Origin: Mogibacterium sp.
Lineage (GTDB): Bacteria > Bacillota > Clostridia > Peptostreptococcales > Anaerovoracaceae
Direction: 5' to 3'
Assembly (NCBI GenBank): GCA_017431685.1
Contig: JAFRKO010000009.1
Coordinates: 152,286-216,285, forward strand
Length of the DNA: 64,000 nt
The position numbers were made by a program, and so were the translations under genes. The notes below the pieces were generated by a model. The model was not told the DNA's origin, searched no databases, and saw only the letters and a list, made by a program, of their open reading frames with translations. Below, one piece after another: positions 25,696 to 60,437 of the stretch (position 1 is the first letter of the stretch; each line of letters starts with the position of its first letter).

Positions 25696-25725
25696 TTGAC
25701 AAACATATGTTCTTTTCTGTATACT
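25696..25725 (+). promoter_or_regulatory. sigma-70-type promoter of the STAND gene, overlapping a divergent minus-strand promoter
   Basis: TTGACA (25696-25701), 18 nt, TATACT (25720-25725). The AACATATGTT palindrome (25702-25711) lies in the spacer. On the minus strand there is TTGATT-17 nt-TAGTAT preceded by TG. Confidence 0.5.
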
Positions 25726-25751
25726 AACATCACCTCAATTAGCAATCAAGT

Positions 25752-28106
25752 GTGGTCTGTATGATAAAGATGAACCGTTGTGATTTTTCTTCGATAATGA
25801 ATATCATCCGCCGCTATGTAAGTGACGATTACGAGATGGGACAGCTTGATCTTGTTGATCTTCTGTTTGCTAGTTTTTGCATGAGTGATATTGCCGAAGA
25901 TTTTGCTTTTGACAACGGTCAGGTCTGCCGATGGATGAACGGTCAGGCAAGGATCAGCCCTAAGATATCCGGATACTATGCAACAGCAATACATCAGAAG
26001 CAGCTTGCAGAAGATATCGAGAACGATCTGATCCCAATACTTACGGACAGCAGCATGGCTTGTAAAGAGATATATGATCTTGTTACACAGGATGCTTCCA
26101 TATCATGGAGAAAGAAAAGGCAGCTGGCCAAAGAATGCCCTCCCCCTGAGGACAAAGCCGAAGCTTTGTTCATAGCTTCTATACTTTGCTTTGGAATGGG
26201 TAGGGAATTTGTTAAGAGACCTTCCAATGCAAAGGCTCTGCCTACTAGTGGCATTACCTCTCCTGTTATATCCGAGCATATATTCGGAGCTGATGTTCCC
26301 CGCCCATGTCGCCATTTTTGCGGGCGTGAGGAAGAGATATCGGAACTACATGATCTCCTTGTAAATAATCAGAAAGTATTTATCACCGGGATGCCGGGCA
26401 TCGGCAAGAGTGAACTTGCAAAGGCATATGCCAAAGCGCATAGGACCGACTATACAAACATCATATACATCACATATTCTGGAGATCTTCGCAAGGATAT
26501 CGCAGATATTGATTTCGCTGACGATCCGCTTTTGGAAAGCGATCAGGAACGCTTTATCAATCACGACAGATTTCTCTGTACTCTCAGGGAAGACTCCCTT
26601 CTGATCATTGATAACTTCAACACAACAGCAGCTGCTGAAAGGACTCTTCGCAGTATAAAGCGATACAGTTGCAGGGTGCTTTTTACTTCTCGCAGCCGCT
26701 GGAGTCATTATCCTTCTTTGGGACTTACCGAGATCAGAGATATGAGTAGTCTGCTTAGTCTTACCGGCAGTCTTTATTCCGAACTTGGCGATAATGAAAG
26801 TACAGTCATAGAAATAATAGAAACAGTCCACCGTCACACTTTGGCAGTGGAGCTTGCTGCAAGGCTGCTTGAAAACGGGATACTGACTCCTGAGGAACTG
26901 CTGCACAGATTCGAAACAGAAAAGGCAGCTATGAGTGTCTCAGACAAAGTCAATGTGAGCAAGGACGGGCACACGAAAAAACAGACATATTATGCTCACA
27001 TACACCTACTGTTTTCGCTGTACAAACTATCAGATGAAGAACAGGAGATAATGCGCAGCATGACTTTCGTTCCAATCACGGGCATATCTCGCAGGCTGCT
27101 TGCAAAATGGTTATTGCTGCAGGATATGAATGTCATCAATGATCTTGTAGAGACAGGCTTTATACTTCCAAAGCCAGGACACTCCATCGCACTGCATCCG
27201 ATGGTGCAGGAAGTTGCTCTGGCAGACCTTAAGCCATCCATTACAAATTGCAGTACACTATTTGACAGTCTTCACGGCATCTGCATACTGCACGGGATAG
27301 ATGTCCCTTGGTACAGAATGCTCTTCCATGTCATAGAACAGATCGTTCTTCTTATAGATAATGATGATGTACCTTCTTATCTATGTTTTATTGAGGACGC
27401 TGTACAGTATATGGACAATTATATGTATGTCAGCGGCATTAAAGTTCTTCAGGAGCGGCTCCGTCAGCTTCTGAAGGATCCGTCGGTAGGCACAGATATT
27501 GACCGTGCTCTTTTTCTCAATAATCAGGCATATCTTGAGACTGATCCGAAGAAGATGATCCCGCTTTATAAAAAAGCCTTAAAGCTTTTGCCTGAGGTCA
27601 ATATGGATACCGCATTGCTTGTCTCCAACCTGCATGCTAACGCCGGCAATATGTATCGTATCACTGGCAACTATTCTCCTGCAAAGGAGCATATGGATGC
27701 TGCGCTGCATATTCTTAAAGAGTACGAGCTGGATAACAGGCATGATGCTATCATCCAGTTCGTCAATTATGGCCTTCTGCTGAAGGATCTCTGCCGCTAT
27801 GATGAAGCATTGAAGTTCCTATTGAAAGCTAAAGAAATCGCTGCCTTTAATATGGGGCAGGAATCATCTGATTATGCAAGGATACAGGAAGCTATTGGCG
27901 TTGTATTTCTTGAAAGCGGTAACGTAAATGAGGGTGCTGAGCATCTTAAGCAGGCAGCTCAGACATACGAGACACTGTATGAAGGCGATGAAGAATTGAT
28001 ACAGTCAAAATACCAGCAGTTCAGGTCATACTATATAGATGCAGGTATTGTTATCGGAAAGCATCTTCGCAATGCAGAACCTCAGCAATCATTATCTGGT
28101 AATTGA
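25752..28106 (+). CDS. NB-ARC/STAND P-loop NTPase with C-terminal TPR repeats and an unassigned ~190-aa N-terminal region
   Basis: Walker A GMPGIGKS, Walker B LLIIDNF, VLFTSRSR, and an HTLAVELAA helix. C-terminal TPR-like repeats. The start is uncertain (GTG 25752, ATG 25761 or ATG 25770). Confidence 0.85.
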   Translation: MVCMIKMNRCDFSSIMNIIRRYVSDDYEMGQLDLVDLLFASFCMSDIAEDFAFDNGQVCRWMNGQARISPKISGYYATAIHQKQLAEDIENDLIPILTDSSMACKEIYDLVTQDASISWRKKRQLAKECPPPEDKAEALFIASILCFGMGREFVKRPSNAKALPTSGITSPVISEHIFGADVPRPCRHFCGREEEISELHDLLVNNQKVFITGMPGIGKSELAKAYAKAHRTDYTNIIYITYSGDLRKDIADIDFADDPLLESDQERFINHDRFLCTLREDSLLIIDNFNTTAAAERTLRSIKRYSCRVLFTSRSRWSHYPSLGLTEIRDMSSLLSLTGSLYSELGDNESTVIEIIETVHRHTLAVELAARLLENGILTPEELLHRFETEKAAMSVSDKVNVSKDGHTKKQTYYAHIHLLFSLYKLSDEEQEIMRSMTFVPITGISRRLLAKWLLLQDMNVINDLVETGFILPKPGHSIALHPMVQEVALADLKPSITNCSTLFDSLHGICILHGIDVPWYRMLFHVIEQIVLLIDNDDVPSYLCFIEDAVQYMDNYMYVSGIKVLQERLRQLLKDPSVGTDIDRALFLNNQAYLETDPKKMIPLYKKALKLLPEVNMDTALLVSNLHANAGNMYRITGNYSPAKEHMDAALHILKEYELDNRHDAIIQFVNYGLLLKDLCRYDEALKFLLKAKEIAAFNMGQESSDYARIQEAIGVVFLESGNVNEGAEHLKQAAQTYETLYEGDEELIQSKYQQFRSYYIDAGIVIGKHLRNAEPQQSLSGN

Positions 28107-28165
28107 ACTAAATATATTCATTTCATAGTCTGATAAGTATAACAGATTATGTGTATTCCTCCGTA

Positions 28166-28207
28166 ACGGGACTCATGCAAAAGCATGGGTCTCGTATTTT
28201 CTTTTTG
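28166..28207 (+). terminator. rho-independent terminator of the STAND gene
   Basis: 13-bp stem ACGGGACUCAUGC/GCAUGGGUCUCGU (two G-U pairs), AAAA loop, then AUUUUCUUUUU. Confidence 0.7.
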
Positions 28208-28340
28208 CACAATTTCAGCTCAATTGAGGCTCAATGAGTTCTTCCTTTCTTTATTTTAGACTGACATCAGTCAAAAGGTGGTACCGGCCAGGTGCCGGAA
28301 ATATCAGAAGTCAATGCTGGAAAAGGAGGAAATCAAACTT

Positions 28341-29264
28341 ATGAAACGACTTTACAACACCATTATCATCGGCGTGGATCATGGGTACGGCAACATTAAG
28401 ACTGCAAATACCATCACGCCAAGCGCAGTGACCGCTTACGAATCAGAGCCCGTCTTCTCTGGGAATATCTTGGAGTACAACGGTATTTACTATCGTATAG
28501 GTGAAGGTCACAAGGAATTTGTCCCGGATAAAACCGGTGACGATGATTACTATGTTCTGACTCTCATGGCTGTAGCAAAAGAGTTGGAATTCCAGGGAAT
28601 ATGCAATGCGGATGTGCATATTGCCGCAGGACTTCCCCTCACTTGGGTACGCAGACAAAGAGAGTCCTTCCGAAGCTATCTGCTCAAGGAGCCCGACGTC
28701 AGGTTCCGCTTCAATGGCAAGGACTATCATATCCGCTTTACCGGATGCAGCTTGTACCCTCAAAGCTATCCTGCAGTCCTTGGCAGGCTCAGCGAATTCC
28801 GTGGCACCACTTTGCTCGCGGATATCGGCAATGGAACTATGAACATTCTCTACTTCAACGGCAAAAAGCCAGTTGAAAGCCGTTGCTGGACTGAGAAACT
28901 CGGTGTCCATCAGTGCATGATCGCTGCACAGAATGCAGTCTTGAATCAGTTCGGTGTAAAGATTGATCCTGTCATCGTTGAGCAGGTCATCCGTACCGGC
29001 ACTGCGGATATCGGCAGCAAGTACCTCAGCTGCATAAAAGATGTATGCCGTTGCTACTGCAGTGACATCTTCGATGCATTGAAAAGGTACGAGTATAACC
29101 CGGAGCTTATGCACCTGTATATCGCCGGAGGAGGCAGCACTCTTATCAGCCACTTCGGGGAATACGATGAAAAAGCCATCACTGTTATCAGTGATCTCTG
29201 TGCAACAGCCAAAGGTTATGAACTTCTTGCATTCGAAAGCCTTTGCAGAAAGGAGTGCAAATGA
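28341..29264 (+). CDS. parM: ParM/StbA-family actin-like plasmid segregation ATPase
   Basis: IIGVDHGYGNIKTA and LLADIGNGTMN phosphate-binding motifs. The ATG at 28341 has an AAAGGAGG SD. Confidence 0.85.
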   Translation: MKRLYNTIIIGVDHGYGNIKTANTITPSAVTAYESEPVFSGNILEYNGIYYRIGEGHKEFVPDKTGDDDYYVLTLMAVAKELEFQGICNADVHIAAGLPLTWVRRQRESFRSYLLKEPDVRFRFNGKDYHIRFTGCSLYPQSYPAVLGRLSEFRGTTLLADIGNGTMNILYFNGKKPVESRCWTEKLGVHQCMIAAQNAVLNQFGVKIDPVIVEQVIRTGTADIGSKYLSCIKDVCRCYCSDIFDALKRYEYNPELMHLYIAGGGSTLISHFGEYDEKAITVISDLCATAKGYELLAFESLCRKECK

Positions 29265-29671
29265 ATCCGGATATCAAGACTACCAATGTCCGTTTCAATC
29301 TGGACAAGGACGACCAGCGCAGAGCCTGGGAATACCTGCAAAGCATGGATAAACGGGTATTCCGCTCATACAGTCATGTGATCTCGCTTGCTCTGCTGGA
29401 CTATTTTGACCGTTATTACAGATTGCAGGAAGATCCATATTTCGAGACCCGCGAGCGTGAGGAAAGATTCGTACAGGAAATCGTGGATGCTGTAAGTGAG
29501 TCGCTGAGGCAGACATTACCGCTGTTCCTGGCAGGCTGCATGACAGGCTTATCTTCCCTACAGCCTGCATCTGATCCTACATTGCAACTAGCGCAGTCTG
29601 AGACCATTGCAGCTGAAGCACCTGAGGAGACAATGCCCGAGGACATCGACTGGGATTTCCTCGGCTCATGA
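29261..29671 (+). CDS. putative ParR-like centromere-binding adaptor (RHH-like N-terminus)
   Basis: ATGA overlap with the parM stop. It occupies the position of parR in type II partition loci. The N-terminal TNVRFNLDKDDQRRAWEYL resembles the strand-helix of an RHH fold. Confidence 0.5.
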   Translation: MNPDIKTTNVRFNLDKDDQRRAWEYLQSMDKRVFRSYSHVISLALLDYFDRYYRLQEDPYFETREREERFVQEIVDAVSESLRQTLPLFLAGCMTGLSSLQPASDPTLQLAQSETIAAEAPEETMPEDIDWDFLGS

Positions 29672-30117
29672 TCAGCGTAGCTGAGAAAAGCTAGGGCCGG
29701 TATCAAATCACAGCTTGTCTGATACCGACCAAATATCTAAAAACGGCGAAATATATATCAAGGGTTGCGCAGATAAACGGTTTCACAGCAAATGATATCA
29801 CAAAAGATGAAAAGTCATATCACTTTAGTGACAACGGCAGCAAAGATCGCGGGCAGACCTGCAGAAGAGCAGCAAATGCACTAAAAGCTACGCCTGACGC
29901 GAGGCACTTAAGTGGAAAACGCATTCAGCCTAGCAGCAACTGCATATGAAATCAACTGAAAAAACTGCCGCATGGGGGTCTGGAGCGTTGGAACAAGCAC
30001 TGCATTCCTGCTCCTACTGGCCGGAATGCGAACCTGGTGGCAGCCCCCAGACCCCCGGCTGAAGCCGATCAAACAAGATACTACACAAGTTATTTCAAGA
30101 AAGGAGACAACATAATA
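29672..30117. other. non-coding region upstream of mobC, candidate oriT
   Basis: 446 nt without a credible ORF. Inverted repeats: GGCCGGTATCA/TGATACCGACC (about 29694-29729), the palindrome CACTTAAGTG (about 29905-29914), and GGGGGTCTGG (29974-29983) with CCAGACCCCC (30047-30056). Confidence 0.35.
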
Positions 30118-30444
30118 ATGATGCGAAGAGATATAAAAAAGAGTTTCTGGGTGAACAGCGAAGAAGACCGCGATATAAAAAACAAGTCGCAGGCAGCCGG
30201 TCTGACCGAGGCTGAATTTCTCCGGCAGAGAGCCAAAGGCTATCACCCGGTCGTAATGCCGGACGAGGTCTTCTGGAAGACCATGGAAAGCATCCGCGAA
30301 TTCGCCGACAAGATCGATGAAGTCGCGATGAACGCAGGCAACCAAGCTGATATGATCGCGATCATGGCGGAAGCCATGAGATGGAGAGCTTTCCAGAACA
30401 GTATCGAGCAGGAGATCCTCATTCCGAAAAGAGGTGATAATTGA
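30118..30444 (+). CDS. mobC: MobC-family relaxosome accessory protein
   Basis: KSFWVNSEEDRDIKNKSQAAGLTEAEFLRQRAKG pattern. AAGGAG SD. Confidence 0.85.
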   Translation: MMRRDIKKSFWVNSEEDRDIKNKSQAAGLTEAEFLRQRAKGYHPVVMPDEVFWKTMESIREFADKIDEVAMNAGNQADMIAIMAEAMRWRAFQNSIEQEILIPKRGDN

Positions 30445-31784
30445 TGGCGGTAACAAAGATATGGAATATACGGGGCCGGGCGGAAAGTCCGCTTGAGTAT
30501 ATTACCAATCCCGAGAAGACTCTGCGTGAGTTCACAGAATCCGAAAAGCAGGCTCTCGCTGATGTGATCGCTTATGCAGCATGCGAGGAAAAGACAGAGC
30601 AGCTCTTCTACACGACTGGGATCAACTGCAGCGTGGAGTTCGCCCGCGACCAGTTCAACGCCAACAAGATAAGGTTTGGCAAGACCGGCGGGAATGTTGC
30701 GTATCACGCTTATCAGAGTTTCCGCGAAGGGGAAGTTACACCTGACGAAGCTCACGCTATAGGAGTACAGCTTGCGAAGGAATTGTGGGGCGACCGCTTT
30801 CAGATGGTGGTCGCCACCCATGTCAACACAAAATGCGTTCATAATCACATAGTGATCAACTCGGTTTCATTCAGAGACGGGCTGAAATTCCATGACTGCA
30901 AGGACACTTACAGACAGCTTAGGGAAGCATCCGACCGCATATGCCTCGAACACGGCCTGTCTATAGTTGAAAATCCCAAAGGCAAGGGTGTGAACCAGTA
31001 TGTCTATAAAATGGAAAAAGCCGGAATGCCTACGAGGTACAACGTAGCACGCCAGGCAATAGACGAGGCGGTCTTTCTCAGCCTGAACATAGAAGAATTC
31101 AAATATGAGCTCAGGAAGCGCGGTTACAATTACCGTTTCGATCCGCAAAGGAAGTACTGGACGATCACACCGCCCGGCGGCAGGAAGCCGATACGTATCC
31201 ATAAGCTCGGGGACGATTACACCAGAGAGAGTATAGAGCGGCGGATCTATGACAATGATCCGTCTGTACGGACAGAAAGGCTGCGGCAGCAATACCGCCA
31301 GCCAAACAATTATAATCTCCGCCGGCGCATCGACCGTATCATGGGACGCAGCGGACTTGAGAAGCTTTATCTCAGATACTGCTACGAGCTCGGCTACCTG
31401 CCGAAGTATCAGCAGAACCCGACAAAGCTCCATATTCTCCTGAAGGAAGATCTCCTGAAATGCGATCAGTACTCAGAACAGGCCAAGCTCCTGTCTAGGT
31501 ACCACGTGGACACTGAAAAGGATCTATCGGATCTTATGGATAATATCGGTGACAGGATGAAAGAACTCAGCCTTGACAGGGATGAACTCAGACGAACAGC
31601 ACGCCGCGTGCTACCGGAAAGCGAGATCAACGAAGCGAAAGACAGGATCAAAGATCTCACCGCTGAGATTAGAGAACTCCGCCATGAACTGAAGATCTGC
31701 GGAGATATACAGCAGCGCTCCGGCCATGTAAGAGAGAATCTTGCGGTCATTGACAAAGACAGGACGCGTGAAAGAGTACGTTAA
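30444..31784 (+). CDS. relaxase/mobilization nuclease (MobA/VirD2-type)
   Basis: AYHAYQSF and THVNTKCVHNHIVINSVSF (histidine triad region). TGATG overlap with mobC. Confidence 0.9.
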   Translation: MAVTKIWNIRGRAESPLEYITNPEKTLREFTESEKQALADVIAYAACEEKTEQLFYTTGINCSVEFARDQFNANKIRFGKTGGNVAYHAYQSFREGEVTPDEAHAIGVQLAKELWGDRFQMVVATHVNTKCVHNHIVINSVSFRDGLKFHDCKDTYRQLREASDRICLEHGLSIVENPKGKGVNQYVYKMEKAGMPTRYNVARQAIDEAVFLSLNIEEFKYELRKRGYNYRFDPQRKYWTITPPGGRKPIRIHKLGDDYTRESIERRIYDNDPSVRTERLRQQYRQPNNYNLRRRIDRIMGRSGLEKLYLRYCYELGYLPKYQQNPTKLHILLKEDLLKCDQYSEQAKLLSRYHVDTEKDLSDLMDNIGDRMKELSLDRDELRRTARRVLPESEINEAKDRIKDLTAEIRELRHELKICGDIQQRSGHVRENLAVIDKDRTRERVR

Positions 31785-31801
31785 AACCACAGGAGGCTTG
31801 G

Positions 31802-33223
31802 ATGACAGAAACCACAACAGATACTATATATAATGACAATTCAGATCTCAGCAGTAACGAATCGCTTACAGGATCAGGAGACTGGACAGATCAGCTAACG
31901 CTGAACAAGAACGGCAGAGCCTGTAATACACTCTGCAACATGCGGCTGATCCTTGAAAATGATGAGGATTTCCGGGGCATCGTATTCAATCAGCTTGCTG
32001 ACGATCTTGAGATCAGAGGCAGTGTTCCCTGGAATCATAATTCAAAGTACTGGCGCGATGTGGATGACGCGCAGCTCATGTGCCTCGTTGATGAACGCTA
32101 CGGCAGCTTCACCCAGAACAACTACCGCACAGCGCTGTCAAAGGTAACAGACGACAGATCATACCACCCTGTCAAGGATTATTTCGAATCGCTGCCTGAA
32201 TGGGACAATAAGCCACGAATCGACACTTTGCTCATCGATTACTTCGGCGCAGACGATACTCCTTATGTCAGAGCGGTGACAAGAAAAATGCTCTGCGCTG
32301 CTGTCAGCAGGATATATAAGCCCGGGATCAAGTTTGACCATATACTTGTTTTCAATGGTCCGCAGGGTATCGGCAAGTCCACATTCATCTCAAAGCTCGG
32401 GATGGAATGGTACTCCGACAGCCTCAGTATTTCCGACATGAACGATAAGACGGCAGCAGAAAAGCTTCAGGGTTACTGGATACACGAGATCGGCGAGCTT
32501 GCCGGAATAAGAAAGGCTGACATAGACAAGGTCAAGGCATTCATCTCGCGGCAGGATGACAAGTACAGGGCTTCATACGGTCGCAGGGTCACCCCTCACC
32601 CAAGGCAGTGTGTGTTCTTCGGAACCACGAATGCAGAAAGTGGCTTTCTTAGAGACATAACAGGTAACCGCAGATTCTGGGCAGTCAGGACTCCCGGTAC
32701 AGGTATCTTAAAGCCTTGGGATCTCACGCAGGATGATGTCGATCAGATATGGGCTGAGGCTCTTTACCTTGCCGGTCAGGGTGAAACTCTGTTCCTCTCA
32801 CACGAGTTGGAAGAATCAGCCAGAGCCTGCCAGGCTGCTGCTATGGAACATGACGACAGAGAAGGTCTTGTCACAGACTACCTTGACCTGCCGCTGCCCG
32901 GAAACTGGAATGAAATGTCTCTTTACGACAGACAGGATTATGTTCAGAGTCAGGGATCGCTTTATAGCGGCGAGGACGTCAGAAGAAGAGATTACGTATC
33001 CAACATAGAGATCTGGTGCGAATGCTTCTGCAAAAACAAGGCTGATTTCCAGCATAAGAACAGCTTTGAAATCAGTGCCATAATGACGCGTATAGACGGA
33101 TGGGAGAAGACCGGCAGGACCATGTGGCTCCCAATCTATGGAAAGCAGCGGATCTACAGACGGAAAAGAGAGAACGACTCTTTGGAACAAACTACGGAAC
33201 GATCTGCGGAACAAACGTTATAA
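31802..33223 (+). CDS. VirE/VapE-family P-loop protein (primase-helicase-like)
   Basis: VFNGPQGIGKSTF Walker A within a typical VapE context. AGGAGG SD. Confidence 0.85.
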   Translation: MTETTTDTIYNDNSDLSSNESLTGSGDWTDQLTLNKNGRACNTLCNMRLILENDEDFRGIVFNQLADDLEIRGSVPWNHNSKYWRDVDDAQLMCLVDERYGSFTQNNYRTALSKVTDDRSYHPVKDYFESLPEWDNKPRIDTLLIDYFGADDTPYVRAVTRKMLCAAVSRIYKPGIKFDHILVFNGPQGIGKSTFISKLGMEWYSDSLSISDMNDKTAAEKLQGYWIHEIGELAGIRKADIDKVKAFISRQDDKYRASYGRRVTPHPRQCVFFGTTNAESGFLRDITGNRRFWAVRTPGTGILKPWDLTQDDVDQIWAEALYLAGQGETLFLSHELEESARACQAAAMEHDDREGLVTDYLDLPLPGNWNEMSLYDRQDYVQSQGSLYSGEDVRRRDYVSNIEIWCECFCKNKADFQHKNSFEISAIMTRIDGWEKTGRTMWLPIYGKQRIYRRKRENDSLEQTTERSAEQTL

Positions 33224-33288
33224 CAGACCTCAGTAAGAATGTATGCCTCTATTCCGGGTATGCGATTCTGATTGCATAGCTGCGGAAT

Positions 33289-33996
33289 TCAGATATCAAG
33301 AATATACATCCCGCTTACATTGATCAGCTGTGTTCCCGATGGATGCTCTGACACTCGTCTTATCCTGGCATATTCCATGTGAACGTGTCCGTAGCAATGA
33401 TACTTTGGTCTGAAATCCGAGAGAAATCTGTTAAAACAACTGAATCCCGTATGTGCCAGGTCACCGAGATCGCCATAACCTCTGCACGGCGCATGCGTAA
33501 GGAAAATATCTACAGGCGCGCCTGACGCATCCCGTCTGGCGTGCTTTTTTTCACTGTGATTTATAAGGCCGAGTTTTATTCTCATACTGAGTCGGCGCAC
33601 GCGGGATGCCATTTCTCTTTCAGAATACATATCCCTGCCTTCACTATAGCGCATCGAACCACCGAGGCCGGCTACTCTTATTCTCCTGACATAGGCGCAG
33701 CCTTCACTATTATCTGCATCCGTGCTATGAACAGGCTCGCAGATCTCTGCTTCAAAAATCTTCCCGTCGATATCGATACAGCCCTCAGGCGGCATCTGGT
33801 CATACCGTCCGTCATGGTTCCCTCTGACATACAAACAAGGAACATTGAGCATCGTGACCAGAAATTCCAGATATTCAGGCCGGATATCTCCTGCGGACAG
33901 TATAAGTCTGACCCCTTCAAGCCTTTTGCTGCCCAATGCGCCCCAATGATCCCACAATTCTCTAAGCTCGTGGTCTGCAATCAGAAGCACTTTCAT
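33289..33996 (-). CDS. calcineurin-like metallophosphoesterase
   Basis: SAGD, RGNHD, THAP and GHVH motifs in the canonical order. Confidence 0.85.
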   Translation of the reverse strand: MKVLLIADHELRELWDHWGALGSKRLEGVRLILSAGDIRPEYLEFLVTMLNVPCLYVRGNHDGRYDQMPPEGCIDIDGKIFEAEICEPVHSTDADNSEGCAYVRRIRVAGLGGSMRYSEGRDMYSEREMASRVRRLSMRIKLGLINHSEKKHARRDASGAPVDIFLTHAPCRGYGDLGDLAHTGFSCFNRFLSDFRPKYHCYGHVHMEYARIRRVSEHPSGTQLINVSGMYILDI

Positions 33997-37289: not shown

Positions 37290-38474
37290 TCAGAATTCCA
37301 GATTAAGATCCGTCTCTTTTGAGAATATATGTGCTACTTTTCCATCAAACGTAAACTTTACAGTATCTCCGATATTATAACTATCCTCCATTTCGACAGT
37401 AGGAACAATAATTATTACATCGCGGCCACTAGCATTGACATGAAGATGCACAGAAGATCCCATCATTTCTGCAACTTCTACGCGTGCCGAGATGCCTTTT
37501 TCTGCTACATCTGTATGTTCTGGACGCACACCCAGTGTTACAGGCTGTGACTGAACATCCTTTGCCAGAAGTCGTGCTTCTTTTTCTTTGGACAGCTCAA
37601 CCTTGAGTCCTCCAACTTCCACGTAGTACTTATCGCCCTCTCTCTTTAAGTCTGCATCAAAGAAATTCATTACCGGCATTCCGATAAATCCTGCAACGAA
37701 CAGATTTGACGGATGATTAAATACCTCCTGCGGTGTTCCGATCTGCTGGATATATCCATCTTTCATGATGACGATACGGTCACCAAGTGTCATAGCTTCT
37801 GTCTGGTCATGCGTTACATACATAAATGTTGTATTGATACGCTGACGAAGTTTAATGATCTCTGCACGCATTTCATTTCGAAGTTTTGCATCGAGGTTGG
37901 ACAGAGGCTCATCCATCAGCATGACTTTTGGATCACGAACTATGGCACGGCCAATCGCTACACGCTGTCGCTGACCACCGGATAAAGCCTTTGGCTTCCT
38001 CTCGAGGTATTGTGTAATGCTCAGGATCTCTGCAGCTTCACGAACTTTCTTGTCGATTACATCTTTTGGCTCTTTACGGAGTTTGAGAGAGAATGCCATA
38101 TTCTCGTATACGGACATATGAGGATAGAGGGCATAGTTCTGAAAGACCATTGCAATATCACGATCCTTAGGAGCAACATCATTCATAACTTTGCCGTCAA
38201 TAACGAGTTCACCGTCACTTATCTCTTCGAGACCGGCAACCATCCTCAGAGTAGTAGACTTCCCGCATCCGGATGGACCTACTAAAACAATGAACTCTTT
38301 GTCTGCAATATCCAGGCTGAATTCCTGAACTGCAACCACTCCCTCATCGGTTATCTGAAGATTAGATTTCTTCTTCTCCGGTTTGTTTTCATCATTCTTT
38401 TTCTTTTTGCTTTTCTGTTCTCCGCTTATGAACGGATATACTTTTTTGATGTTATTAAGCTGTACTGTTGCCAT
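37290..38474 (-). CDS. sugar ABC transporter ATP-binding protein (MsmK/MsmX/UgpC type) with a Lys-rich N-terminal insert
   Basis: GPSGCGKST Walker A, LSGGQRQR, LMDEPLSNLD. I chose the ATG at 38474 (MATVQL); the track ORF extends to a GTG at 38558. Confidence 0.9.
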   Translation of the reverse strand: MATVQLNNIKKVYPFISGEQKSKKKKNDENKPEKKKSNLQITDEGVVAVQEFSLDIADKEFIVLVGPSGCGKSTTLRMVAGLEEISDGELVIDGKVMNDVAPKDRDIAMVFQNYALYPHMSVYENMAFSLKLRKEPKDVIDKKVREAAEILSITQYLERKPKALSGGQRQRVAIGRAIVRDPKVMLMDEPLSNLDAKLRNEMRAEIIKLRQRINTTFMYVTHDQTEAMTLGDRIVIMKDGYIQQIGTPQEVFNHPSNLFVAGFIGMPVMNFFDADLKREGDKYYVEVGGLKVELSKEKEARLLAKDVQSQPVTLGVRPEHTDVAEKGISARVEVAEMMGSSVHLHVNASGRDVIIIVPTVEMEDSYNIGDTVKFTFDGKVAHIFSKETDLNLEF

Positions 38475-38671
38475 AGTATTATTGACTCCGGACACATTGC
38501 CTCCGCATGATGTGCCCTCGCAGGGACTGATGCCTCCTGCATTACGACAGGTCTCCACACTGCCGCAGCCCGAGTCCTGGCATATTTCCTCCTTTCCTCA
38601 TGTCCCTGACACCAAGTAAAGTGGAGTGGTTTCCAGGTCATGGTAGTAGCATAATCAACAATTAAACCGTA

Positions 38672-53628: not shown

Positions 53629-55092
53629 CTATTCTGCAGGAATAATCACATATGCCGTCTGATTTCTTCTTCCCCAGCTGATACAGGCTGCTCTTGAATT
53701 CATGTACAGGTCTACTACGTTGCCCTTAACGGCACCGCCTGTATCACACGCATAAGCGTATCCGTAACCTTCGACCCACAGTTCGGACCTCAGACTTACA
53801 AAGCCGGGGTCAGCAGCACACGTGCCGTAATGCACACCCATTCCGAGAGCTCCGCGCGCTCCGGCCCTTGCCGTATACGCCGTCGTATTGGCCGTGAAGG
53901 TCATTGATACGGTATATTCACCTGAATTACCGGTACCGGAAGTGCCAAGCCTCAGTACACTGTCATGAGGTTCAGTGATCCATTCCTTCAGCTCACGCTC
54001 AGTACCTTTGTTTTTTCCGTTCACGTATTTTGTGGTATAAGTGAAAATTCCCTCTCCGTCGTTTCCTTCGGAGGTTTCCTGAACACCTGAGGTAAGAGAC
54101 GGATCGAGTATCACTTTGTCTACTGATTCCACGACTTCATTCTTCTCTTCCACATCATAGTGGATCTCATTTACCACAATGGAAGTGTCGTCTGAAATCT
54201 TCTTATCGAGGGCTGGCTTCACTTCGTCATCATCATCAAAACTGATCCCGTTGAGAACCAGGTTTTCTTCTACCGTGCCCGGAACAAGCCAGAGTTTCTG
54301 CTTTTTTCCCGCTATCTTCGCATCAGTTTCTGTTGCACATCTGATTTCGACAGTCATTCCATTCTTCACAGGCAGTTCCGGGTTGGTGTCCATAAGATCA
54401 TTTCTGCCTGTTTTGCCTTCTTCAGCCAGATCATCCTTCAGTTCACCGGCAGTTCTGGCAGCAGTCGCATACTCTATATGCTGAGTATCTCCATATGTTA
54501 CATAATCGACGTTCACAGTCTTAGGCACCATATAATCCCAGACCTGATATCCCGTAAACAGGATCATCATTACTAAAGCCGCGGTGAGAGTACGTCTGTG
54601 TCTGTCACCGAAAAGAGCCCTGGCTGCCGCAGATTCAGGCACATAGCGGGGCTTCGGATATTTTGACGGAGATACTTTGGCTTTAGGGAGCGGTCCATAT
54701 TCCTTCTTTGCTTTTTCTTTAACCGGTTCAGAGTCTTCTGTCGGCTCTGATTCCTGTACGGACTGGGATTCTGACTCTGGTTCCGGTTCAGCTTGAGGCT
54801 CCTGTTCCGGCTCAGGCTCAGGTTCCTCCGCATCGGTGTCAGCCCACACAAACGCTACATTCGCGAGTTCTTCCTCCTCTTCGACCTTGAGCTTTTCTGC
54901 TTCAGCCTCATAATCAAATTCAGGAGCTATCCGCGCTGCTTCTTCTTCGAGCCTGGCGTATTCGGCCTCGATCAGTTCCTTTATCTTTTCCCTGATCTGA
55001 TCACGCTCGAGCTGTATGGTTTCTCTCTTTATATCTGCTTCTGTCTTTATATTATTCTCCGATCCGGATATCAAAATGTGTCCGGGTATCAT
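53629..55092 (-). CDS. YabE-like cell-wall protein (acidic N-terminus, TM, DUF348/G5, 3D domain)
   Basis: G5-like segment, then a C-terminal 3D domain (CAADP...YAYACDTGGAVKGNVVDLY). ATGA overlap with the upstream gene. Confidence 0.8.
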   Translation of the reverse strand: MIPGHILISGSENNIKTEADIKRETIQLERDQIREKIKELIEAEYARLEEEAARIAPEFDYEAEAEKLKVEEEEELANVAFVWADTDAEEPEPEPEQEPQAEPEPESESQSVQESEPTEDSEPVKEKAKKEYGPLPKAKVSPSKYPKPRYVPESAAARALFGDRHRRTLTAALVMMILFTGYQVWDYMVPKTVNVDYVTYGDTQHIEYATAARTAGELKDDLAEEGKTGRNDLMDTNPELPVKNGMTVEIRCATETDAKIAGKKQKLWLVPGTVEENLVLNGISFDDDDEVKPALDKKISDDTSIVVNEIHYDVEEKNEVVESVDKVILDPSLTSGVQETSEGNDGEGIFTYTTKYVNGKNKGTERELKEWITEPHDSVLRLGTSGTGNSGEYTVSMTFTANTTAYTARAGARGALGMGVHYGTCAADPGFVSLRSELWVEGYGYAYACDTGGAVKGNVVDLYMNSRAACISWGRRNQTAYVIIPAE

Positions 55093-56159
55093 CGACCCGG
55101 ACGTATTATTCCCTTGATTCTTTTGCTGTCTATCTTATATATATTGCGGATCACCGCTCCCGGCTTTCCGCAGCCTATCGCGGCAGTAGGTCCTGCATTG
55201 CCTTCAATGGTTATGATATATTTTCCGACAACACCTTCAACAAGACCGACATGTCTGTTGCTACCGAATACGATTATATCTCCGCCCTTAGCCTTTTTTC
55301 TTTTTTTGACCCATTTGCCGTACCGGTCGGCATAGCGCGAGTAACTCGGCACATATCCAAGCGGTCCGAATTTCTTTGCTACTGTTATTTTTTTATAAAG
55401 CCCTGCCTCGTTATAGCACCATGCAACAAAGGCCCCGCACCATGGAGTGCGGTCAGTATCAACAAATCTTGTTTTATAATACCATCTCCAGTACTCCCTG
55501 CCGGTCATGATGCCAACCTGTTCCTTAGCAACGGCAACTACTTTACTTCCGTCTCCGTCAGGTATTACGACAGTTACAGCATGTCCGTTTTTATTGGAAG
55601 CGTACGGGATGTTATTTACGGTGAATACGTCGTCAACGATTATCTTTCCGCCCTTTGTTACATAGTAAGTCTGCTCTTTCCAGTGCACAAAACCCTCTCT
55701 TCTGCGCCATACTCCTGATGTATATGAATAGTATAATTTTCCATTCCACGAATACACGCCGGTTTTGATAACACCGTATTTATTTGCGCGGTAATACTTC
55801 TTATTTACCTTGAAGGTCCTGTTTGTTCTGATCTTCCCGCCTTTTCTGATGTAATACTTTTTTCCGTCAACTGTGACAAAGCCGGATTTTTTGCGGATCT
55901 TTCCATCAGCTTCCCTGTAATAATAGTTTTTTCCCTTCTTTATTATCTCCGCCTTTGCCTCAGGCTCACGCGATGCTTCTTCTCCCGCCTGTTCCGGGCC
56001 TCCGGAAATTTCATCCACGGTCTCAGTCTGCACAGCTTCTTCATCAGTGCTCTCCGGCTCTCCTCCGGTTTCCGCATAAACCGCTGAAAAAGAAAGAACG
56101 AACATTAGAAGCAAAGCTGTCAATGTTCGTTTTACTCTTACTTTCTTTGCAGATCTCAT
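55089..56159 (-). CDS. secreted cell-wall-binding-repeat protein with a C-terminal CHAP amidase/peptidase domain
   Basis: Signal peptide, tandem GKxYY-type repeats, and CHAP motifs (PWCGAFVAWC ... HVGLV). Confidence 0.8.
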   Translation of the reverse strand: MRSAKKVRVKRTLTALLLMFVLSFSAVYAETGGEPESTDEEAVQTETVDEISGGPEQAGEEASREPEAKAEIIKKGKNYYYREADGKIRKKSGFVTVDGKKYYIRKGGKIRTNRTFKVNKKYYRANKYGVIKTGVYSWNGKLYYSYTSGVWRRREGFVHWKEQTYYVTKGGKIIVDDVFTVNNIPYASNKNGHAVTVVIPDGDGSKVVAVAKEQVGIMTGREYWRWYYKTRFVDTDRTPWCGAFVAWCYNEAGLYKKITVAKKFGPLGYVPSYSRYADRYGKWVKKRKKAKGGDIIVFGSNRHVGLVEGVVGKYIITIEGNAGPTAAIGCGKPGAVIRNIYKIDSKRIKGIIRPGR

Positions 56160-56189
56160 GCCTTCTGCTGTCCTCCTGCCTGAATCCGG

Positions 56190-56753
56190 TTACTGCTGCA
56201 CAGATGATTTGCCTGCTGAAGCGCTGCTGTCATCTTTGCCGCCGTTCCAGTTATAACCCAATTCTTCGAAATGCTCATAAGTTGTCACTCCAACAGCACT
56301 TACTCCTTCGTTATTCATGCCGTGCCTTGAAGTAAGCGTCTCAACGTACAGAACATATTTCTGTTCTCCCAGAGTCACTATGAACCTTTCGCTTATATCC
56401 ATCTCTCCCTTTTGATTCGGAGCTTTTGAAAAACTTCCGGCTCCAAGTGATACAGCGTTGTCGAAGTCTGCCTTGCTCCACTCTGCAAAGCCTGTCACGC
56501 TTTCTGCTCCCTTTGAGTCAATCATCAGGGCTCCGAGTTTTTCAGCGCTTTCTGATTTCAGAGCCTTCATAACTTCTTTGGAATTTTCAGCGCTGAATTC
56601 GGTCATTGAATAGAAATCAGGTTCAGTGATCTTTTCTGCGGCGACTTTCTTTTCATAAGTTGATTTTGCCATCATTATAGCTGCAACTGCAAAGACCGCC
56701 ACCATCAGCAGAAATGCTGTCAAAAGTATTCTGTTTGATTTTTTCTTCTTCAT
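56190..56753 (-). CDS. membrane-anchored hypothetical protein
   Basis: N-terminal TM anchor. AGGAGA SD. Confidence 0.6.
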   Translation of the reverse strand: MKKKKSNRILLTAFLLMVAVFAVAAIMMAKSTYEKKVAAEKITEPDFYSMTEFSAENSKEVMKALKSESAEKLGALMIDSKGAESVTGFAEWSKADFDNAVSLGAGSFSKAPNQKGEMDISERFIVTLGEQKYVLYVETLTSRHGMNNEGVSAVGVTTYEHFEELGYNWNGGKDDSSASAGKSSVQQ

Positions 56754-56808
56754 TTTTACATCTCCTGTCCTGTATATCTATAATATAGCATTTGTCCGCG
56801 CTTGTCTA

Positions 56809-57435
56809 ATGATGTATACTATGAATATGACAGATGAGGAAATAAGACGCATACTGCGCAAAAAAAGAGAACAGCAGCTGCTGAAAAGACGCCTTATAGC
56901 CATAACAGTTGCAGCAGTCATTGCTGTCGGCGGCGGACTTCTTGCAGGCAGAGCCATAGGAAACAAGCTCTACAATGACGAGATCAGCAAAATCGTTACG
57001 GTTGCAGAAGATAACGCTATGGTAAAGGCCGGCATGAGCCAGCTGGGCAACAAGGGCGGCAGAAAGTTCTGGTCGTGGTTCGGTTTTGAGAACCGCGAAG
57101 ATTGGTGTGCATGCTTTGTTTCATGGTGTGAAGACCAGTGCGGATATCTTGAAAAGGGTCTGGCTCCTAAGTTCGCTATTGTCAGTGACGGAGCGGACTG
57201 GTTTGTACTTCGTGATCAGTGGCGTCCTGTAGGAGATACTCCGCAAGCCGGTGATCTCATATTCTTTGACTGGGATCAGGACGGAGGCCGTGATCACGTA
57301 GGCATAGTTACCGCTGTAGCCAATGATAAGGTCTTTACAGTCGAAGGCAACTCAAGCGACCTCTGCAGGCAAAAGAGATATGATTTAGACGATCCTATAA
57401 TCTACGGATACGGAATCATCAAGCCTCAGCAATAA
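56809..57435 (+). CDS. membrane-anchored CHAP-domain peptidoglycan hydrolase
   Basis: EDWCACFVSWC and DHVGIV CHAP motifs. Four in-frame ATGs lie at 56809-56827, none with an SD. Confidence 0.8.
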   Translation: MMYTMNMTDEEIRRILRKKREQQLLKRRLIAITVAAVIAVGGGLLAGRAIGNKLYNDEISKIVTVAEDNAMVKAGMSQLGNKGGRKFWSWFGFENREDWCACFVSWCEDQCGYLEKGLAPKFAIVSDGADWFVLRDQWRPVGDTPQAGDLIFFDWDQDGGRDHVGIVTAVANDKVFTVEGNSSDLCRQKRYDLDDPIIYGYGIIKPQQ

Positions 57436-57500
57436 AGTTCAGCAATAAAATAACAAGCTGTTACTGAAACAGGTACAGCTTGTTTTTTTATTGTCTGTAA

Positions 57501-58580
57501 TTATCTTACATGCAGATCAGGCTCGATCGCTTCGAAAACAGGAAGTATTCCAGTCTTTTCAGGAGTCTGGGCAGGCAGCTGCCAGAAATCATGAGCACAG
57601 TAGTTGTTGCCCTCGACAATAGCAGGCCCGTCAGGCGTAATACCAATATCCCATCCGACGTATCTTACCTGCGGAACGACCAGCGCGGCTTCTTTCGCAA
57701 GCTCACAGGCCTCTTTGAACATCGGTACCTGGTGTCCCATCAGCTTGTAATGTGTCATCGGATGCTCGTCATATACGATAGCCATCGATCCGTCGCCGCT
57801 GACTCCAGGTGAACAGATTTTGCCGGTCTCGAGATCGACTCTTGTGCCGAATCCGTAATTGTCTACCACGCGGCCGTTAAGTCCGAACTTCTGAGTCGCA
57901 AAGATGACATGAGGAACTCTCTGCTTATCTACTACAGTGATTATCCTGAGACAGTTCATCGCATAAGGATAAACTTTCTCATTGTCAGGATGCTGTTTGA
58001 GCACCTCCTCAAGGAGCCATGAATCCTCCTGAAGAAGCTCCCTGTACATCTCGTCAAAGTCCTTGTAATCATCGAGATTCTTCTTCATACAGCCGTGACC
58101 GCATGATCCGTCTACAGGCTTGCAGAATATGACTTTATGCTTTTCAACAAACTCCCTGACCTCTCCCTTTGAGGATGTTTTGAAGTTGATGAAATCACGC
58201 TTTATATAATCTCTGAACAGGTTGTTGAAGTCTTCCTTGTTGTCGAACAGGTGCTCATATGTATCATCGTTGAAATGGCTTATGAGCTTCTTGTTGCGAA
58301 GTCTTGTCAGGAAAGTGTCGCGCTGCTCGTCGGTCAGATCCCAGAATCCGAATGTGACGTAATCAAAATAGCCTGCTCCGAATTTAATTGCGCATTTAGC
58401 CATGTCTGCGGTAATGGCAGCCTTGCTCATACCTGAAAACTTTGCAGTCCTGTCCAATACATCTTTATATTTTTCAAGGCTCATCCCCTTGAGAACTCTT
58501 ATTATATAACCAGGGCTCAGCACTTTTAAAACCTCCTTTGGTCTTTTCAGATTTCCATGTAATTCTACAATACATCGCAT
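57501..58580 (-). CDS. sugar-transfer-associated ATP-grasp family protein
   Basis: N-terminal FGAGYFDYVTFGFWDLTDEQRDTFLT pattern and a C-terminal ATP-grasp-like region (RYVGWDIGITPDGPAIVEGN). Start uncertain (ATG 58580 or TTG 58628). Confidence 0.7.
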   Translation of the reverse strand: MRCIVELHGNLKRPKEVLKVLSPGYIIRVLKGMSLEKYKDVLDRTAKFSGMSKAAITADMAKCAIKFGAGYFDYVTFGFWDLTDEQRDTFLTRLRNKKLISHFNDDTYEHLFDNKEDFNNLFRDYIKRDFINFKTSSKGEVREFVEKHKVIFCKPVDGSCGHGCMKKNLDDYKDFDEMYRELLQEDSWLLEEVLKQHPDNEKVYPYAMNCLRIITVVDKQRVPHVIFATQKFGLNGRVVDNYGFGTRVDLETGKICSPGVSGDGSMAIVYDEHPMTHYKLMGHQVPMFKEACELAKEAALVVPQVRYVGWDIGITPDGPAIVEGNNYCAHDFWQLPAQTPEKTGILPVFEAIEPDLHVR

Positions 58581-58685
58581 CAAGTTGCCAGCATGTCGTT
58601 CAAAATTAATAATATGATAGAATATCAATTGCGTATCTTTTTTACGTCAAAGCATGCTACAATTATTTAATAGTTTTTTTATAAA

Positions 58686-58870
58686 GCGATAAACAAAACA
58701 CACGCCTCGCCTGTTCCGTCTCCGGGAATGCCATCTCGTTCGACCTTGCTTCGCGGGGAACGGCTCTGACGCTTCGCTTGCGAGACTCGTTCCAGCCGCT
58801 CACCAGCGGTTTCTCTCCGGCATTCCAGGCGGCTCCTGCACAACGCTCGTCTTAGTGTTTTGTTTACCGC
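58686..58870 (+). ncRNA. candidate structured RNA (class not recognised); strand inferred from promoter position
   Basis: A GC-rich island with no ORF. A 15/16-bp closing helix pairs 58686-58701 with 58855-58870, and several internal helices are present. An extended -10 promoter TGcTACAAT sits at 58655-58663. Confidence 0.4.
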
Positions 58871-58897
58871 TAATAAGTCAAAAAAAGGATGAAAACA

Positions 58898-59596
58898 ATG
58901 GAATTCACTGCTAATGCAAATAAAAATATTTCAATCGAGACTTCTACAGGCAACTATGACCGCTGCGCCATACAGACGCACTTTATCGAGATAGGCGAAG
59001 ACTATATCGAGCTTGTTGAGCGCTACGTAAGACCTTTCTGGCAGGAAGGTGATCTGCTGGCTATAGCAGAAAAGATAGTCTCACTCTGCCAGAACAATGT
59101 TATCCCTAAAAAAGATGTAAAGGTCAGCAGGCTTGCCAAATTCCTCAGCCGCTTTGCTACACAGCACAATTCGGCCGGCATAGGTGTGGGCGATGTATAT
59201 AAGATGCAGTATGCCATTGACCTGAACGGAGGAGCAAAGGTGTTTCTTGCCGCTGTATGTGCGGGTTTCGGTAAATTCATCGGCAAAAAAGGCATCTTCT
59301 ACGATATGGTAGGCGAAGAAGTACGCGGACTCGACGGTTTCTATCCTGATGTCTTCCCTATTTACGGCGAATATGGTATTCCTCTTCCGAAGAACCCTAA
59401 TGGTGTCTGCAATGAGATCAGAGAAAAGACCGGCATGTCATGCATCATAATCGACGCGAATGATTTCACCCGCGATATTCTCGGAAAGAGCGATGATGTG
59501 ACCCTCAGCGATGAACAGCTCTGTGAGATAATCAGAGATAATCCGGCCGGTCAGGATGACCAGTGTACTCCGTTCATTCTAATCAGAAAAAAATAA
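58898..59596 (+). CDS. F420-0:gamma-glutamyl ligase (CofE)-like family protein
   Basis: The pattern ...QEGDLLAIAEKIVSLCQ...SRLAKFLSRF...GIGVG... matches CofE-like proteins of Firmicutes. The ATG at 58898 fits the AAAGGA SD; an ATG at 58889 is also in frame. Confidence 0.65.
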   Translation: MEFTANANKNISIETSTGNYDRCAIQTHFIEIGEDYIELVERYVRPFWQEGDLLAIAEKIVSLCQNNVIPKKDVKVSRLAKFLSRFATQHNSAGIGVGDVYKMQYAIDLNGGAKVFLAAVCAGFGKFIGKKGIFYDMVGEEVRGLDGFYPDVFPIYGEYGIPLPKNPNGVCNEIREKTGMSCIIIDANDFTRDILGKSDDVTLSDEQLCEIIRDNPAGQDDQCTPFILIRKK

Positions 59597-59614
59597 TCAT
59601 TCTTAAAAAGCAAT

Positions 59615-59646
59615 AAAAAAAGTGTTCATTGACTGAACACTTTTTT
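59615..59646. terminator. bidirectional rho-independent terminator
   Basis: A7-GTGTTCA-TTGAC-TGAACAC-T6, between convergent genes. Confidence 0.75.
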
Positions 59647-59666
59647 ATTGCCTTATATATCCGGAT

Positions 59667-60437
59667 CTACTGCGCCTGATAGTAGTCTTCCATGTTTTCG
59701 AGATACTCCTCAAGACAGATACCGTTGTCCTTTATTATAGACGCGTGCTCTTTGCCGACATATCTGTAATGCCATGGTTCATAGATGATCTCTGTGATGT
59801 CTTCCTTATCTTTAGGATATCTCAGTATGAAACCGTAATCCTGGCAGTGTTCCATCAGCCACTGCTGTGCCGGCATGTCCTCCTGCTCATCTATGAGCGG
59901 ATCTGCCCAGCCAAGTGAGTCAGCGTCGATTATGTCAGCCGCCAGGCCGCATTCGTGTTCGCTGTGGCCCGGTATGGCAGTATCTGCTTTATTCGCAGTA
60001 TGATCGTACAGATATTGCTGGGTTTCGCGTGTCCTGAATGTGGATATCAGGCGAGGATAGTAACCTGCTTCCCTGCAGTCTGAAAGCATTTCCTGAAGAG
60101 CATCATGCACTCTGGCGTCTATATAATATCCGTCCTCTACTTCAACTGTCTCGATGTCGAAATCATCAGGCATCGCATTCTGATTATTTACAAGAATCAG
60201 ATACCACTGACCTTTTTCATCTTCGATCTTTTCAAGGCGTGCCTGCTCCATTTCCTCTTCTTCAGCCTGCTGCTGTGCAGCTTCTTCGGCTGCTTCTTCA
60301 TCTGCGCGCCTTGCTTCCGCACGGCGGGTATTTTCTGCTGATTTGGATACAATAAAGTATCCGGCCACCATCACCAGGATAATGAGCGATATGATGATTT
60401 TTATAAGGTTGCGGTTCTTTCTCTTTCTTCTTCTCAA
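59667..60437 (-). CDS. M15B (VanY-like) D-alanyl-D-alanine carboxypeptidase, membrane-anchored
   Basis: SGHSEHECGLAADI-type zinc-binding motif (GHSEHECGLAAD) and EPWHYRYVG. TTG start with a GAGGAG SD. Confidence 0.8.
   Translation of the reverse strand: MRRRKRKNRNLIKIIISLIILVMVAGYFIVSKSAENTRRAEARRADEEAAEEAAQQQAEEEEMEQARLEKIEDEKGQWYLILVNNQNAMPDDFDIETVEVEDGYYIDARVHDALQEMLSDCREAGYYPRLISTFRTRETQQYLYDHTANKADTAIPGHSEHECGLAADIIDADSLGWADPLIDEQEDMPAQQWLMEHCQDYGFILRYPKDKEDITEIIYEPWHYRYVGKEHASIIKDNGICLEEYLENMEDYYQAQ

Follow-up and report, generated by a model that had tools for sequence, protein, structure and literature searches.

What is the GC-rich island that stands between two divergent genes, one for an ATP-grasp protein and one for a CofE-like protein, in the genome of a Mogibacterium sp. 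(GenBank assembly GCA_017431685.1, contig JAFRKO010000009.1)? The whole stretch of DNA analysed here, 64,000 nt from positions 152,286 to 216,285 of the forward strand of that contig, is referred to as the window, and coordinates are counted from its first letter. The original prediction, made from the sequence alone, placed a structured element of ~185 nt between the two genes and offered several identities for it: the 5′ leader of the CofE-like gene, an independent 6S-like RNA, or a DNA element resembling a miniature inverted-repeat transposable element (MITE). The reading we favour, tentatively and at a strength slightly below even, is that the island at 58686-58870 is one copy of an undescribed low-copy palindromic intergenic repeat, similar in kind to ERIC (enterobacterial repetitive intergenic consensus) and MITE elements, and that in this genome it is transcribed within an mRNA leader.

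The contrast in composition on which the prediction was built holds: the GC content is 0.64-0.65 in 58686-58870, compared to 0.22-0.31 in the flanks. The intergenic region is longer than the 260 nt originally given, running ~374 nt from the GTG codon at 58523 to the ATG at 58898. It had also been said that the island holds no open reading frame (ORF) on either strand, but two short ORFs of 46 and 54 aa run across it on the minus strand. Small-peptide coding was ruled out, as copies of the element are separated by single-base frameshifting indels and both ORFs are therefore non-coding. No second copy was found in the 64-kb window by blastn, pattern search or covariance model. The parts of the element are the following.

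58686-58870, folded form scoring best on the minus strand: the whole rod element, 185 nt, one copy of family 1.
58686-58701: left arm of the terminal inverted repeat (closing helix 1), GCGATAAACAAAACAC, locus-specific.
58702-58854: conserved core common to all family members.
58722-58732: 5′ arm of helix 4, CCGGGAATGCC, with its partner at 58819-58829 (inverted repeat I3).
58748-58754, minus strand: second invariant GCGAAGC heptamer.
58757-58793: invariant apical hairpin, GGAACGGCTCT...AGACTCGTTCC (inverted repeat I4).
58771-58777, minus strand: GCGAAGC heptamer at the tip of the rod (GCTTCGC on the plus strand).
58819-58829: 3′ arm of helix 4, GGCATTCCAGG.
58855-58870: right arm of the terminal inverted repeat (closing helix 1), GTGTTTTGTTTACCGC.

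Several of the pairings picked out by eye are borne out. The two arms of the closing helix are complementary at 15 of 16 positions, and an inverted-repeat search lengthened this terminal repeat to 17 nt (94% complementary) while independently recovering two inner inverted repeats, 58722-58732/58819-58829 and 58757-58767/58783-58793. CGCCTG/CAGGCG and the two occurrences of GCTTCGC (58748-58754 and 58771-58777) are present as listed. With RNA parameters, the plus strand folds at -67.3 kcal/mol (z -2.4 against dinucleotide shuffles) and the minus strand at -80.1 kcal/mol (z -3.5); with DNA parameters, the z values are -4.3 and -4.5 for the two strands. The island is a genuine structured element whose folding exceeds chance.

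Comparison between copies supports the structure. Matches from nhmmer and covariance models link the window element to 9 other copies, and covariance model R1 scores 58686-58870 at 213.5 bits (E 9e-46, minus strand). Nine distinct copies were aligned over ~185 nt, with a model-guided alignment used for the covariation counts. The consensus fold is one interrupted rod of 58 pairs, in which 96.7% of alignment cells pair, against 86.1% in shuffles. Both sides have changed in 25 of the 58 pairs, where shuffles give 10.5 +/- 1.9 (none of 500 reaches 25) and controls with slid partners give 4-8. This covariation lies in the outer four helices, which include the closing helix and GAATGCC/GGCATTC. In helix 1, 13 of 15 pairs have changed on both sides across copies, and in helix 4 there are compensatory variants, GAATGTC/GACATTC in the copy called L093 and GGGGATTTC/GGAAATCCC in L095. 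The rod structure has covariation behind it. In the nine copies the 18 apical pairs are all invariant, so the predicted GGAACG/CGTTCC pairing, present as sequence, is neither supported nor contradicted. Two further predictions stood as sequence only. For the 58796-58809 hairpin there is no support from covariation, and its bases have other partners in the consensus fold; other alleles lack the pairing of the T7 run with the A7 run.

The closing helix is 10-18 bp long, locus-specific in sequence and always complementary, as seen in the following list.

Window: GCGATAAACAAAACAC.
L093: AAGAAATTATATA.
L095: GGCGGGGACAATATGC.
L091: CCGCAGATATG.
L092: CGCAGACTGC.

Identity in this helix is 59-88% among orthologues and 25-45% between loci, and in the core the values are 90-96% and 82-90%. 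Alignment between loci fails at the outer repeats, and only weak inner imperfect repeats (ACGAnnCG...) are common to them. The four-fold degenerate sites of CofE are only 44-56% identical between species sharing the core. The adjacent divergent promoter region (~58530-58665, with its equivalents in L002, L009 and L094) is 78-92% identical across species with ~50% four-fold-site identity, so constraint on the core equals or exceeds that on bona fide control DNA.

The element is also dispersed. The ~155-nt core recurs in Mogibacterium-like (Anaerovoracaceae) contigs at four further and unrelated loci, where the best matches of the neighbouring proteins are again Mogibacterium metagenome-assembled genomes (MAGs).

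L093: 2 nt past the dnaN stop codon, convergent with gatD.
L092: 3 nt past the rho stop codon.
L091: upstream of an aldo/keto-reductase-like ORF, 12 nt ahead of its ribosome-binding site.
L095: between rnfC and a decarboxylase gene.

The copies occupy very short intergenic gaps, abutting stop codons or lying ~12-30 nt ahead of start codons, and their orientation with respect to neighbouring transcription is mixed. At L095, a partial tandem duplicate of one arm (~6330-6400, ~65 nt, ~90% identical) lies ~150 nt from the full copy. The gatD/dnaN locus of a relative with 87% GatD identity shows the empty site, which consists of a terminator alone with no pre-existing hairpin. We considered insertion into a pre-existing hairpin and rejected it, since the empty alleles at both CofE and dnaN have no such hairpin. 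The original prediction had itself held that dispersed copies would speak against its leader reading, and they do. The element sits at the leader position in this genome as predicted, but a leader or riboswitch tied to the gene does not fit a core shared by four unrelated loci.

Other GC-rich palindromes are found at the same places. Past rho, L140 (3860-3993) and L141 (3636-3800) carry the 5′ half of a family-1 element fused to an arm that resembles a region of L139, and L139 carries at 3942-4216 an unrelated GC-rich palindromic region of ~250 nt. The three contigs encode an identical Rho protein, and from these sequences the rho locus appears to undergo rapid turnover or nesting of palindromic elements. 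L011 (2687-2915) and L014 (2715-2913) have GC-rich rods of 200-230 nt from a second family between their ATP-grasp and CofE genes, on the upstream side of the CofE promoter; the two are ~60% identical. Homology of these rods to the window element was rejected, as they share only short words such as CCGGGAAT and score 9-11 bits with the covariance model (E 0.15-0.4). At least nine metagenome or Logan contigs (L104-L106, L119, L120, L122 and L133-L135) stop inside the invariant core at recurrent positions, which is consistent with branching of the assembly graph at a shared repeat or palindrome.

The orthologous CofE locus shows how variable the element can be at one site. The CofE-like homologues derive from rumen Mogibacterium/Anaerovoracaceae MAGs. 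The full element is present at 4 of 80 species-level CofE-like loci and missing from the other 76. It is forward in L009, as in the window; in L002, L003 and L005 it occupies the same site with its interior reverse-complemented. Additional alleles were obtained by exact-protein look-ups. A metagenome allele, L094, is a further inverted one; its left flank, left repeat included, is colinear with the forward alleles, and the inversion is therefore limited to the interior. Three distinct internal deletions (L006, L121 and L123-L132), all in forward alleles, each lie between direct repeats of 2-4 nt. Of the left repeat, L046 and L107 keep a remnant (GCGATAAAC or GTGATAA) at an otherwise empty site, and L007 is also empty. 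In the identity matrix of CofE and ATP-grasp proteins, the inverted L002 and L003 cluster with the forward-deleted or empty L006, L046 and L121; the window, L009 together with L123, L005, and L094 branch separately. Because orientation is mixed across these groupings, at least two inversions are required. The element is old at this locus, since it is shared by species with saturated synonymous sites, and microhomology deletions have eroded or removed it in several lineages. The CofE gene stays intact where the element in its leader is inverted, internally deleted or missing.

Within a strain, orientation is constant among the contigs listed. All ten listed contigs of the L009-type strain are forward (7 complete and 3 cut off inside the element; 24 read; different samples), and all four of the L005-type strain are inverted (5 read). 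Independent assemblies of a strain share one orientation, which rules out a fast phase switch, with the qualification that assemblies show the majority orientation only and low-level switching would escape them.

Database searches point to a family without a known counterpart in them. Rfam 15, used in gathering and E-value modes on the window, the island region and 15 related loci, returned no relevant family, in line with the prediction's failure to match the island by eye to known riboswitches or to signal recognition particle RNA. The only Rfam model to pass its threshold in the whole window, malK-I, lies away from the island, and the top match in 58500-59000, osmY, scores 15.7 bits where 46.9 are required (E 0.51). 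ARAGORN found 0 tRNA or tmRNA genes in 58500-59000. Viral contigs gave 0 matches to exact 19- and 20-mers of the core, and plasmids, phages and E. coli genomes had no match by blastn. A scan of JGI metagenome contigs (241 million records) with one invariant exact 20-mer of the core recovered five true copies and one chance match.

These results, taken together, lead us to favour a repeat of the ERIC, MITE or REPIN kind (REPIN, a hairpin-forming doublet of repetitive extragenic palindromic, or REP, sequences). The reasons are the unrelated loci, both orientations, tight placement by gene ends and frequent decay, to which can be added turnover between strains, the company of other GC-rich palindromes and the absence of a linked gene. 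As expected of a dispersed repeat, there are five loci across metagenome contigs, full, deleted and empty alleles, and no coding capacity, with dispersal seen across contigs and not within one genome. As expected of an ERIC-like element, the family is an imperfect palindrome, intergenic only, in either orientation, conserved across species and variable in presence. The family of ~185-bp imperfect palindromes appears, from the contigs that carry it, to have rumen Anaerovoracaceae (Mogibacterium-like) genomes as its host range. The terminal inverted repeats would produce the inversions, by recombining or by allowing template switching from one to the other. The element would be co-transcribed with the CofE-like mRNA, where a rod of ~58 bp in the leader may have no more than an incidental effect on mRNA stability or translation. 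The near-invariant core may be kept because the folded single strand, RNA or single-stranded DNA (ssDNA), is recognised sequence-specifically, by a host factor or by whatever propagates the element. A mobilising enzyme, if there is one, would be encoded elsewhere.

Several observations weigh against the palindromic repeat. The termini of the element are not conserved, unlike the terminal repeats of MITEs or the REP ends. As target-site duplications the flanking direct repeats are ambiguous, being ATAA/AATAA in the window and ATAATT in L091, with none clear in L093 and L095. Copy number looks low, with 1 copy in the 64-kb window and 5 matches in the JGI records, and no autonomous partner or mobilising gene was identified among the window ORFs or at the loci. 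Finally, orthologous copies resemble each other more closely than they resemble copies from other loci, and the core is conserved far above synonymous sites. Such conservation resembles that of old paralogous functional RNA genes under purifying selection and not that of a recently active selfish element. Part of it may be a regional effect, the adjacent promoter region being itself well conserved.

What else could the rod be? An unlikely possibility is that it is not junk but a new class of functional folded single strand, with a centre of ~110 nt under selection and a stem whose sequence is free as long as it pairs, able to work after an in-place flip. Such a strand could be a mobile structured small RNA (sRNA) with a protein partner, or a GCGAAGC-capped ssDNA priming or recombination signal that seeds beside gene ends. 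In a more conventional version, which we consider unlikely on balance, the copies are paralogous genes for a new ~185-nt structured sRNA whose core is recognised by a protein or target while the stem merely pairs, spread by old duplications and thinned by many losses. The level of core conservation (90-96% where four-fold sites are ~50% identical), the hierarchical divergence, the low copy number and a covarying closing helix of free sequence, typical of functional RNAs, all agree with sRNA genes. So does the strand bias in folding, as the G/A-rich reverse-complement (minus-sense) strand gives the more stable RNA fold, by 5-21 kcal/mol, in 9 of 9 copies, though this energy may reflect G/A richness and the excess of G.U over A.C pairs in the shared rod, 11 against 6, is not decisive for strand. 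L093 has an extended -10-like TGTAATAAT ~20 nt upstream of this strand, but the junction promoters of L093 and L091 look coincidental, and no conserved promoter or terminator travels with the element; neither an internal sigma-70 promoter nor an intrinsic terminator was found in it. One further promoter candidate was tried. On the minus strand at 58779-58794, TGGAACGAGTCTCGCA resembles a sigma-54 -24/-12 promoter, with GG and GC correctly spaced, and is invariant in all copies. It was dropped because it was noticed post hoc, because the second rod family lacks it, and because at three loci it would read antisense into dnaN, rho and another gene. Weighing further against sRNA genes, copies are truncated or replaced among strains with identical Rho, orientation to neighbouring transcription is mixed, and at the CofE locus the interior alone inverts and stays conserved in both orientations, so that one strand cannot always be transcribed from the sole nearby promoter. 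A 6S-like RNA in particular is improbable, since the element is sporadic among relatives and the Rfam 6S model does not match it.

A signal acting as folded ssDNA is distinctly less probable. It would be a priming or single-strand initiation site, or a hairpin substrate of an HUH or tyrosine recombinase, with the same enzyme moving the element or inserting it at hairpin tips. GCGNAGC is an extraordinarily stable DNA mini-hairpin motif reported at primase and at phage and plasmid ssDNA initiation sites, with a much weaker RNA version (PMC13037366), and the rod has two invariant GCGAAGC heptamers on one strand, one of them exactly at its apex. This match was noticed post hoc. The DNA-parameter folds have z values of about -4.4 and favour neither strand. 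The locus-specific closing helices and the nesting of the rho-locus element among palindromes also suit such a signal, and REPINs are known to insert into or beside each other (PMC3116915). Both orientations persist at one locus, arguing that there is no fixed relation to replication direction, the empty dnaN and CofE sites lack a hairpin to insert into, and no HUH, RAYT (REP-associated tyrosine transposase) or integrase partner gene was seen in the window scan. A retron non-coding RNA (msr-msd) was also rejected: the neighbours are ATP-grasp, CofE-like, VanY and CHAP genes and there was no reverse transcriptase in that scan.

The location of the element in the window raises two further explanations. 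The first, a phase-variable invertible switch in the 5′ untranslated region that turns a CofE-like cell-envelope gene on or off by flipping between the terminal repeats, is very unlikely in spite of an attractive layout: a promoter and a ribosome-binding site enclose a 153-bp segment bounded by inverted repeats of 16-22 bp, related species carry it at this one site in either orientation, and the neighbours (CHAP, VanY, 3D/G5 and ATP-grasp) are of the cell wall. The Clostridioides difficile cwpV and flgB switches share this arrangement of promoter, repeats and segment. The single orientation per strain among listed contigs, majority state though it is, speaks against a switch, as do terminal repeats that differ between loci and copies that follow the stop codons of dnaN and rho, a position with little use for a switch. 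No orientation-specific terminator or promoter was found, and there is no recombinase within 5 kb; the large serine integrase of the window is 35 kb off, inside a mobilisable element. Most improbable of all is a gene-specific cis-regulatory leader, riboswitch or attenuator, of the CofE-like gene. The element is strongly structured, lies 27 nt ahead of the start codon and is downstream of a conserved promoter. However, most orthologous leaders lack it or have it inverted or deleted, with the gene kept (76 of 80 loci are without it), the same core stands beside unrelated genes, there is no conserved expression platform (the T7/A7 pairing is allele-specific), and Rfam has no match. Unrelated loci and altered orthologous leaders beside an intact CofE decide that this is not a CofE-tied leader or riboswitch.

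The two flanking genes were correctly recognised in the original prediction, and their features are listed here.

57501-58523, minus strand: ATPgrasp_ST gene, GTG start at 58523, divergent from the CofE-like gene.
58655-58663, plus strand: extended -10 promoter-like TGCTACAAT of the CofE-like gene, upstream of the element.
58884-58900, plus strand: Shine-Dalgarno AAAGGA and probable ATG (58898) of the CofE-like gene, 27 nt past the element.
From the probable ATG at 58898, plus strand: F420_ligase/CofE-like gene (PF01996); homologues of 232 aa begin here.

The putative extended -10 is, as predicted, present, and it is conserved as GCATGCTACAAT in all type-A alleles, with the element present or absent (GCATGATACAAT in L094). 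Since the alleles all keep GCATGCTACAAT upstream, the element sits in the CofE 5′ leader in the window's lineage; it is outside the ATPgrasp_ST leader because the ATPgrasp_ST promoter region is to its left. Most alleles have the palindrome GGCAAGTTGCC within the divergent promoter region, which suggests a dense conserved control region with an operator. Both genes belong to a cell-wall neighbourhood (53629-60437) with 3D/G5, two CHAP and VanY genes, and in L138 (1501-3313) the ATPgrasp_ST gene adjoins murT/gatD. This context hints that the pair may modify peptidoglycan or a wall polymer with glutamate and may not act on F420.

A Pfam scan covered nearly all of the 61 window ORFs, a few of ~80-120 aa being left out. 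It found no transposase, reverse transcriptase or small invertase in the window, nor was there any within 5 kb of the island. The sole recombinase in the window is a large serine integrase at 22176-23846, 35 kb from the island. It belongs to an apparent integrated mobilisable element (~21000-33300) with a WYL regulator (21076-21993), an ORF6N protein, an actin-like ALP_N protein, a MobA/VirD2 relaxase (30441-31784) and a VapE-like protein (31802-33223). The malK-I RNA (RF03069) is full length at 38469-38644 on the minus strand and scores 124 bits (threshold 60). The gene immediately downstream of it encodes a MalK-type ABC ATPase (37290-38558) and belongs to a cluster of GH32, sugar ABC transporter and LacI genes.

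If the island is an intergenic repeat as we favour, uncultured rumen Clostridia carry a kind of palindromic repeat best known from Proteobacteria and a few Firmicutes, and the architecture of this one, a fixed centre with a free and covarying closing stem, is unusual. The CofE locus provides a natural allele series (forward, inverted, half-deleted and empty) for hairpin inversion, decay and effects on a downstream gene. The extreme conservation of the core could point to an RNA- or ssDNA-binding partner. A caution also follows, as a GC-rich leader structure with strong covariation need not be a riboswitch.

How does the element compare with known systems? 6S RNA (RF00013) is likewise rod-shaped and ~185 nt. 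Its Rfam model does not match the element, which is sporadic, found at several loci and sometimes inverted or deleted, and no central bubble of the 6S open-promoter-like type was identified in the rod. The C. difficile cwpV and flgB switches and other invertons consist of a ~150-200-bp segment between ~20-bp repeats, set between promoter and coding sequence. Segment and repeat sizes, placement and the two orientations at one locus are similar here. The element differs from them in showing no mixture of orientations within a strain, no nearby recombinase and no repeats common to its loci, in occurring also at 3′ gene ends, and in that a covarying rod makes up the segment.

Bacterial MITEs (Correia, RUP and bcr1 elements among them) are small and non-coding, have terminal inverted repeats, insert in AT-rich intergenic DNA near gene ends in either orientation, form co-transcribed hairpins and are polymorphic in presence between strains. 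Small size, lack of coding, terminal repeats, placement, orientation, probable co-transcription as a hairpin and strain polymorphism are common to both, and the MITE alternative of the original prediction was closer to the truth than its leader, given dispersed copies and terminal repeats. The terminal inverted repeats of MITEs are transposase binding sites and are conserved between copies. In the element the outer repeats are only 25-45% identical between loci and the interior is conserved, the reverse of a classical MITE; orthologous copies are ancient and yet nearly unchanged in the core; the candidate target-site duplications are ambiguous; and we know of no matching transposase.

REPINs, which PMC3116915 mentions together with ERIC and NEMIS, are mobilised by RAYTs and have two conserved inverted REP 16-25-mers at their ends with a less conserved spacer (PMC3116915). 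Both they and the element are intergenic repeats that form hairpins, with folding predicted in mRNA or ssDNA, both cluster or nest with palindromes in the same intergenic spot, and both leave decayed singlets or half-elements (PMC3116915). The pattern of conservation is reversed, with variable ends and a conserved centre in the element, so the conserved end repeats of a REPIN are missing. No RAYT or IS200-like gene was seen in the window or at the loci, and copy number is far lower.

ERIC sequences, also called intergenic repeat units (IRU), are imperfect palindromes of ~100-200 bp that are intergenic, usually transcribed, found in either orientation and present or absent at orthologous sites. 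They are non-coding, of low to moderate copy number and unusually conserved between species, and to our knowledge no mobilising enzyme has been described for them. The element has no sequence similarity to ERIC (no E. coli match) and belongs to Clostridia, another phylum. It is 185 nt long and GC-rich in a genome of 45% GC, its ends vary and covary around a fixed centre, its inversion in place is documented, and its copies are known across contigs and not within one genome. In palindrome size, intergenic placement, orientation, variable presence, conservation, lack of coding and low copy number, the two are alike.

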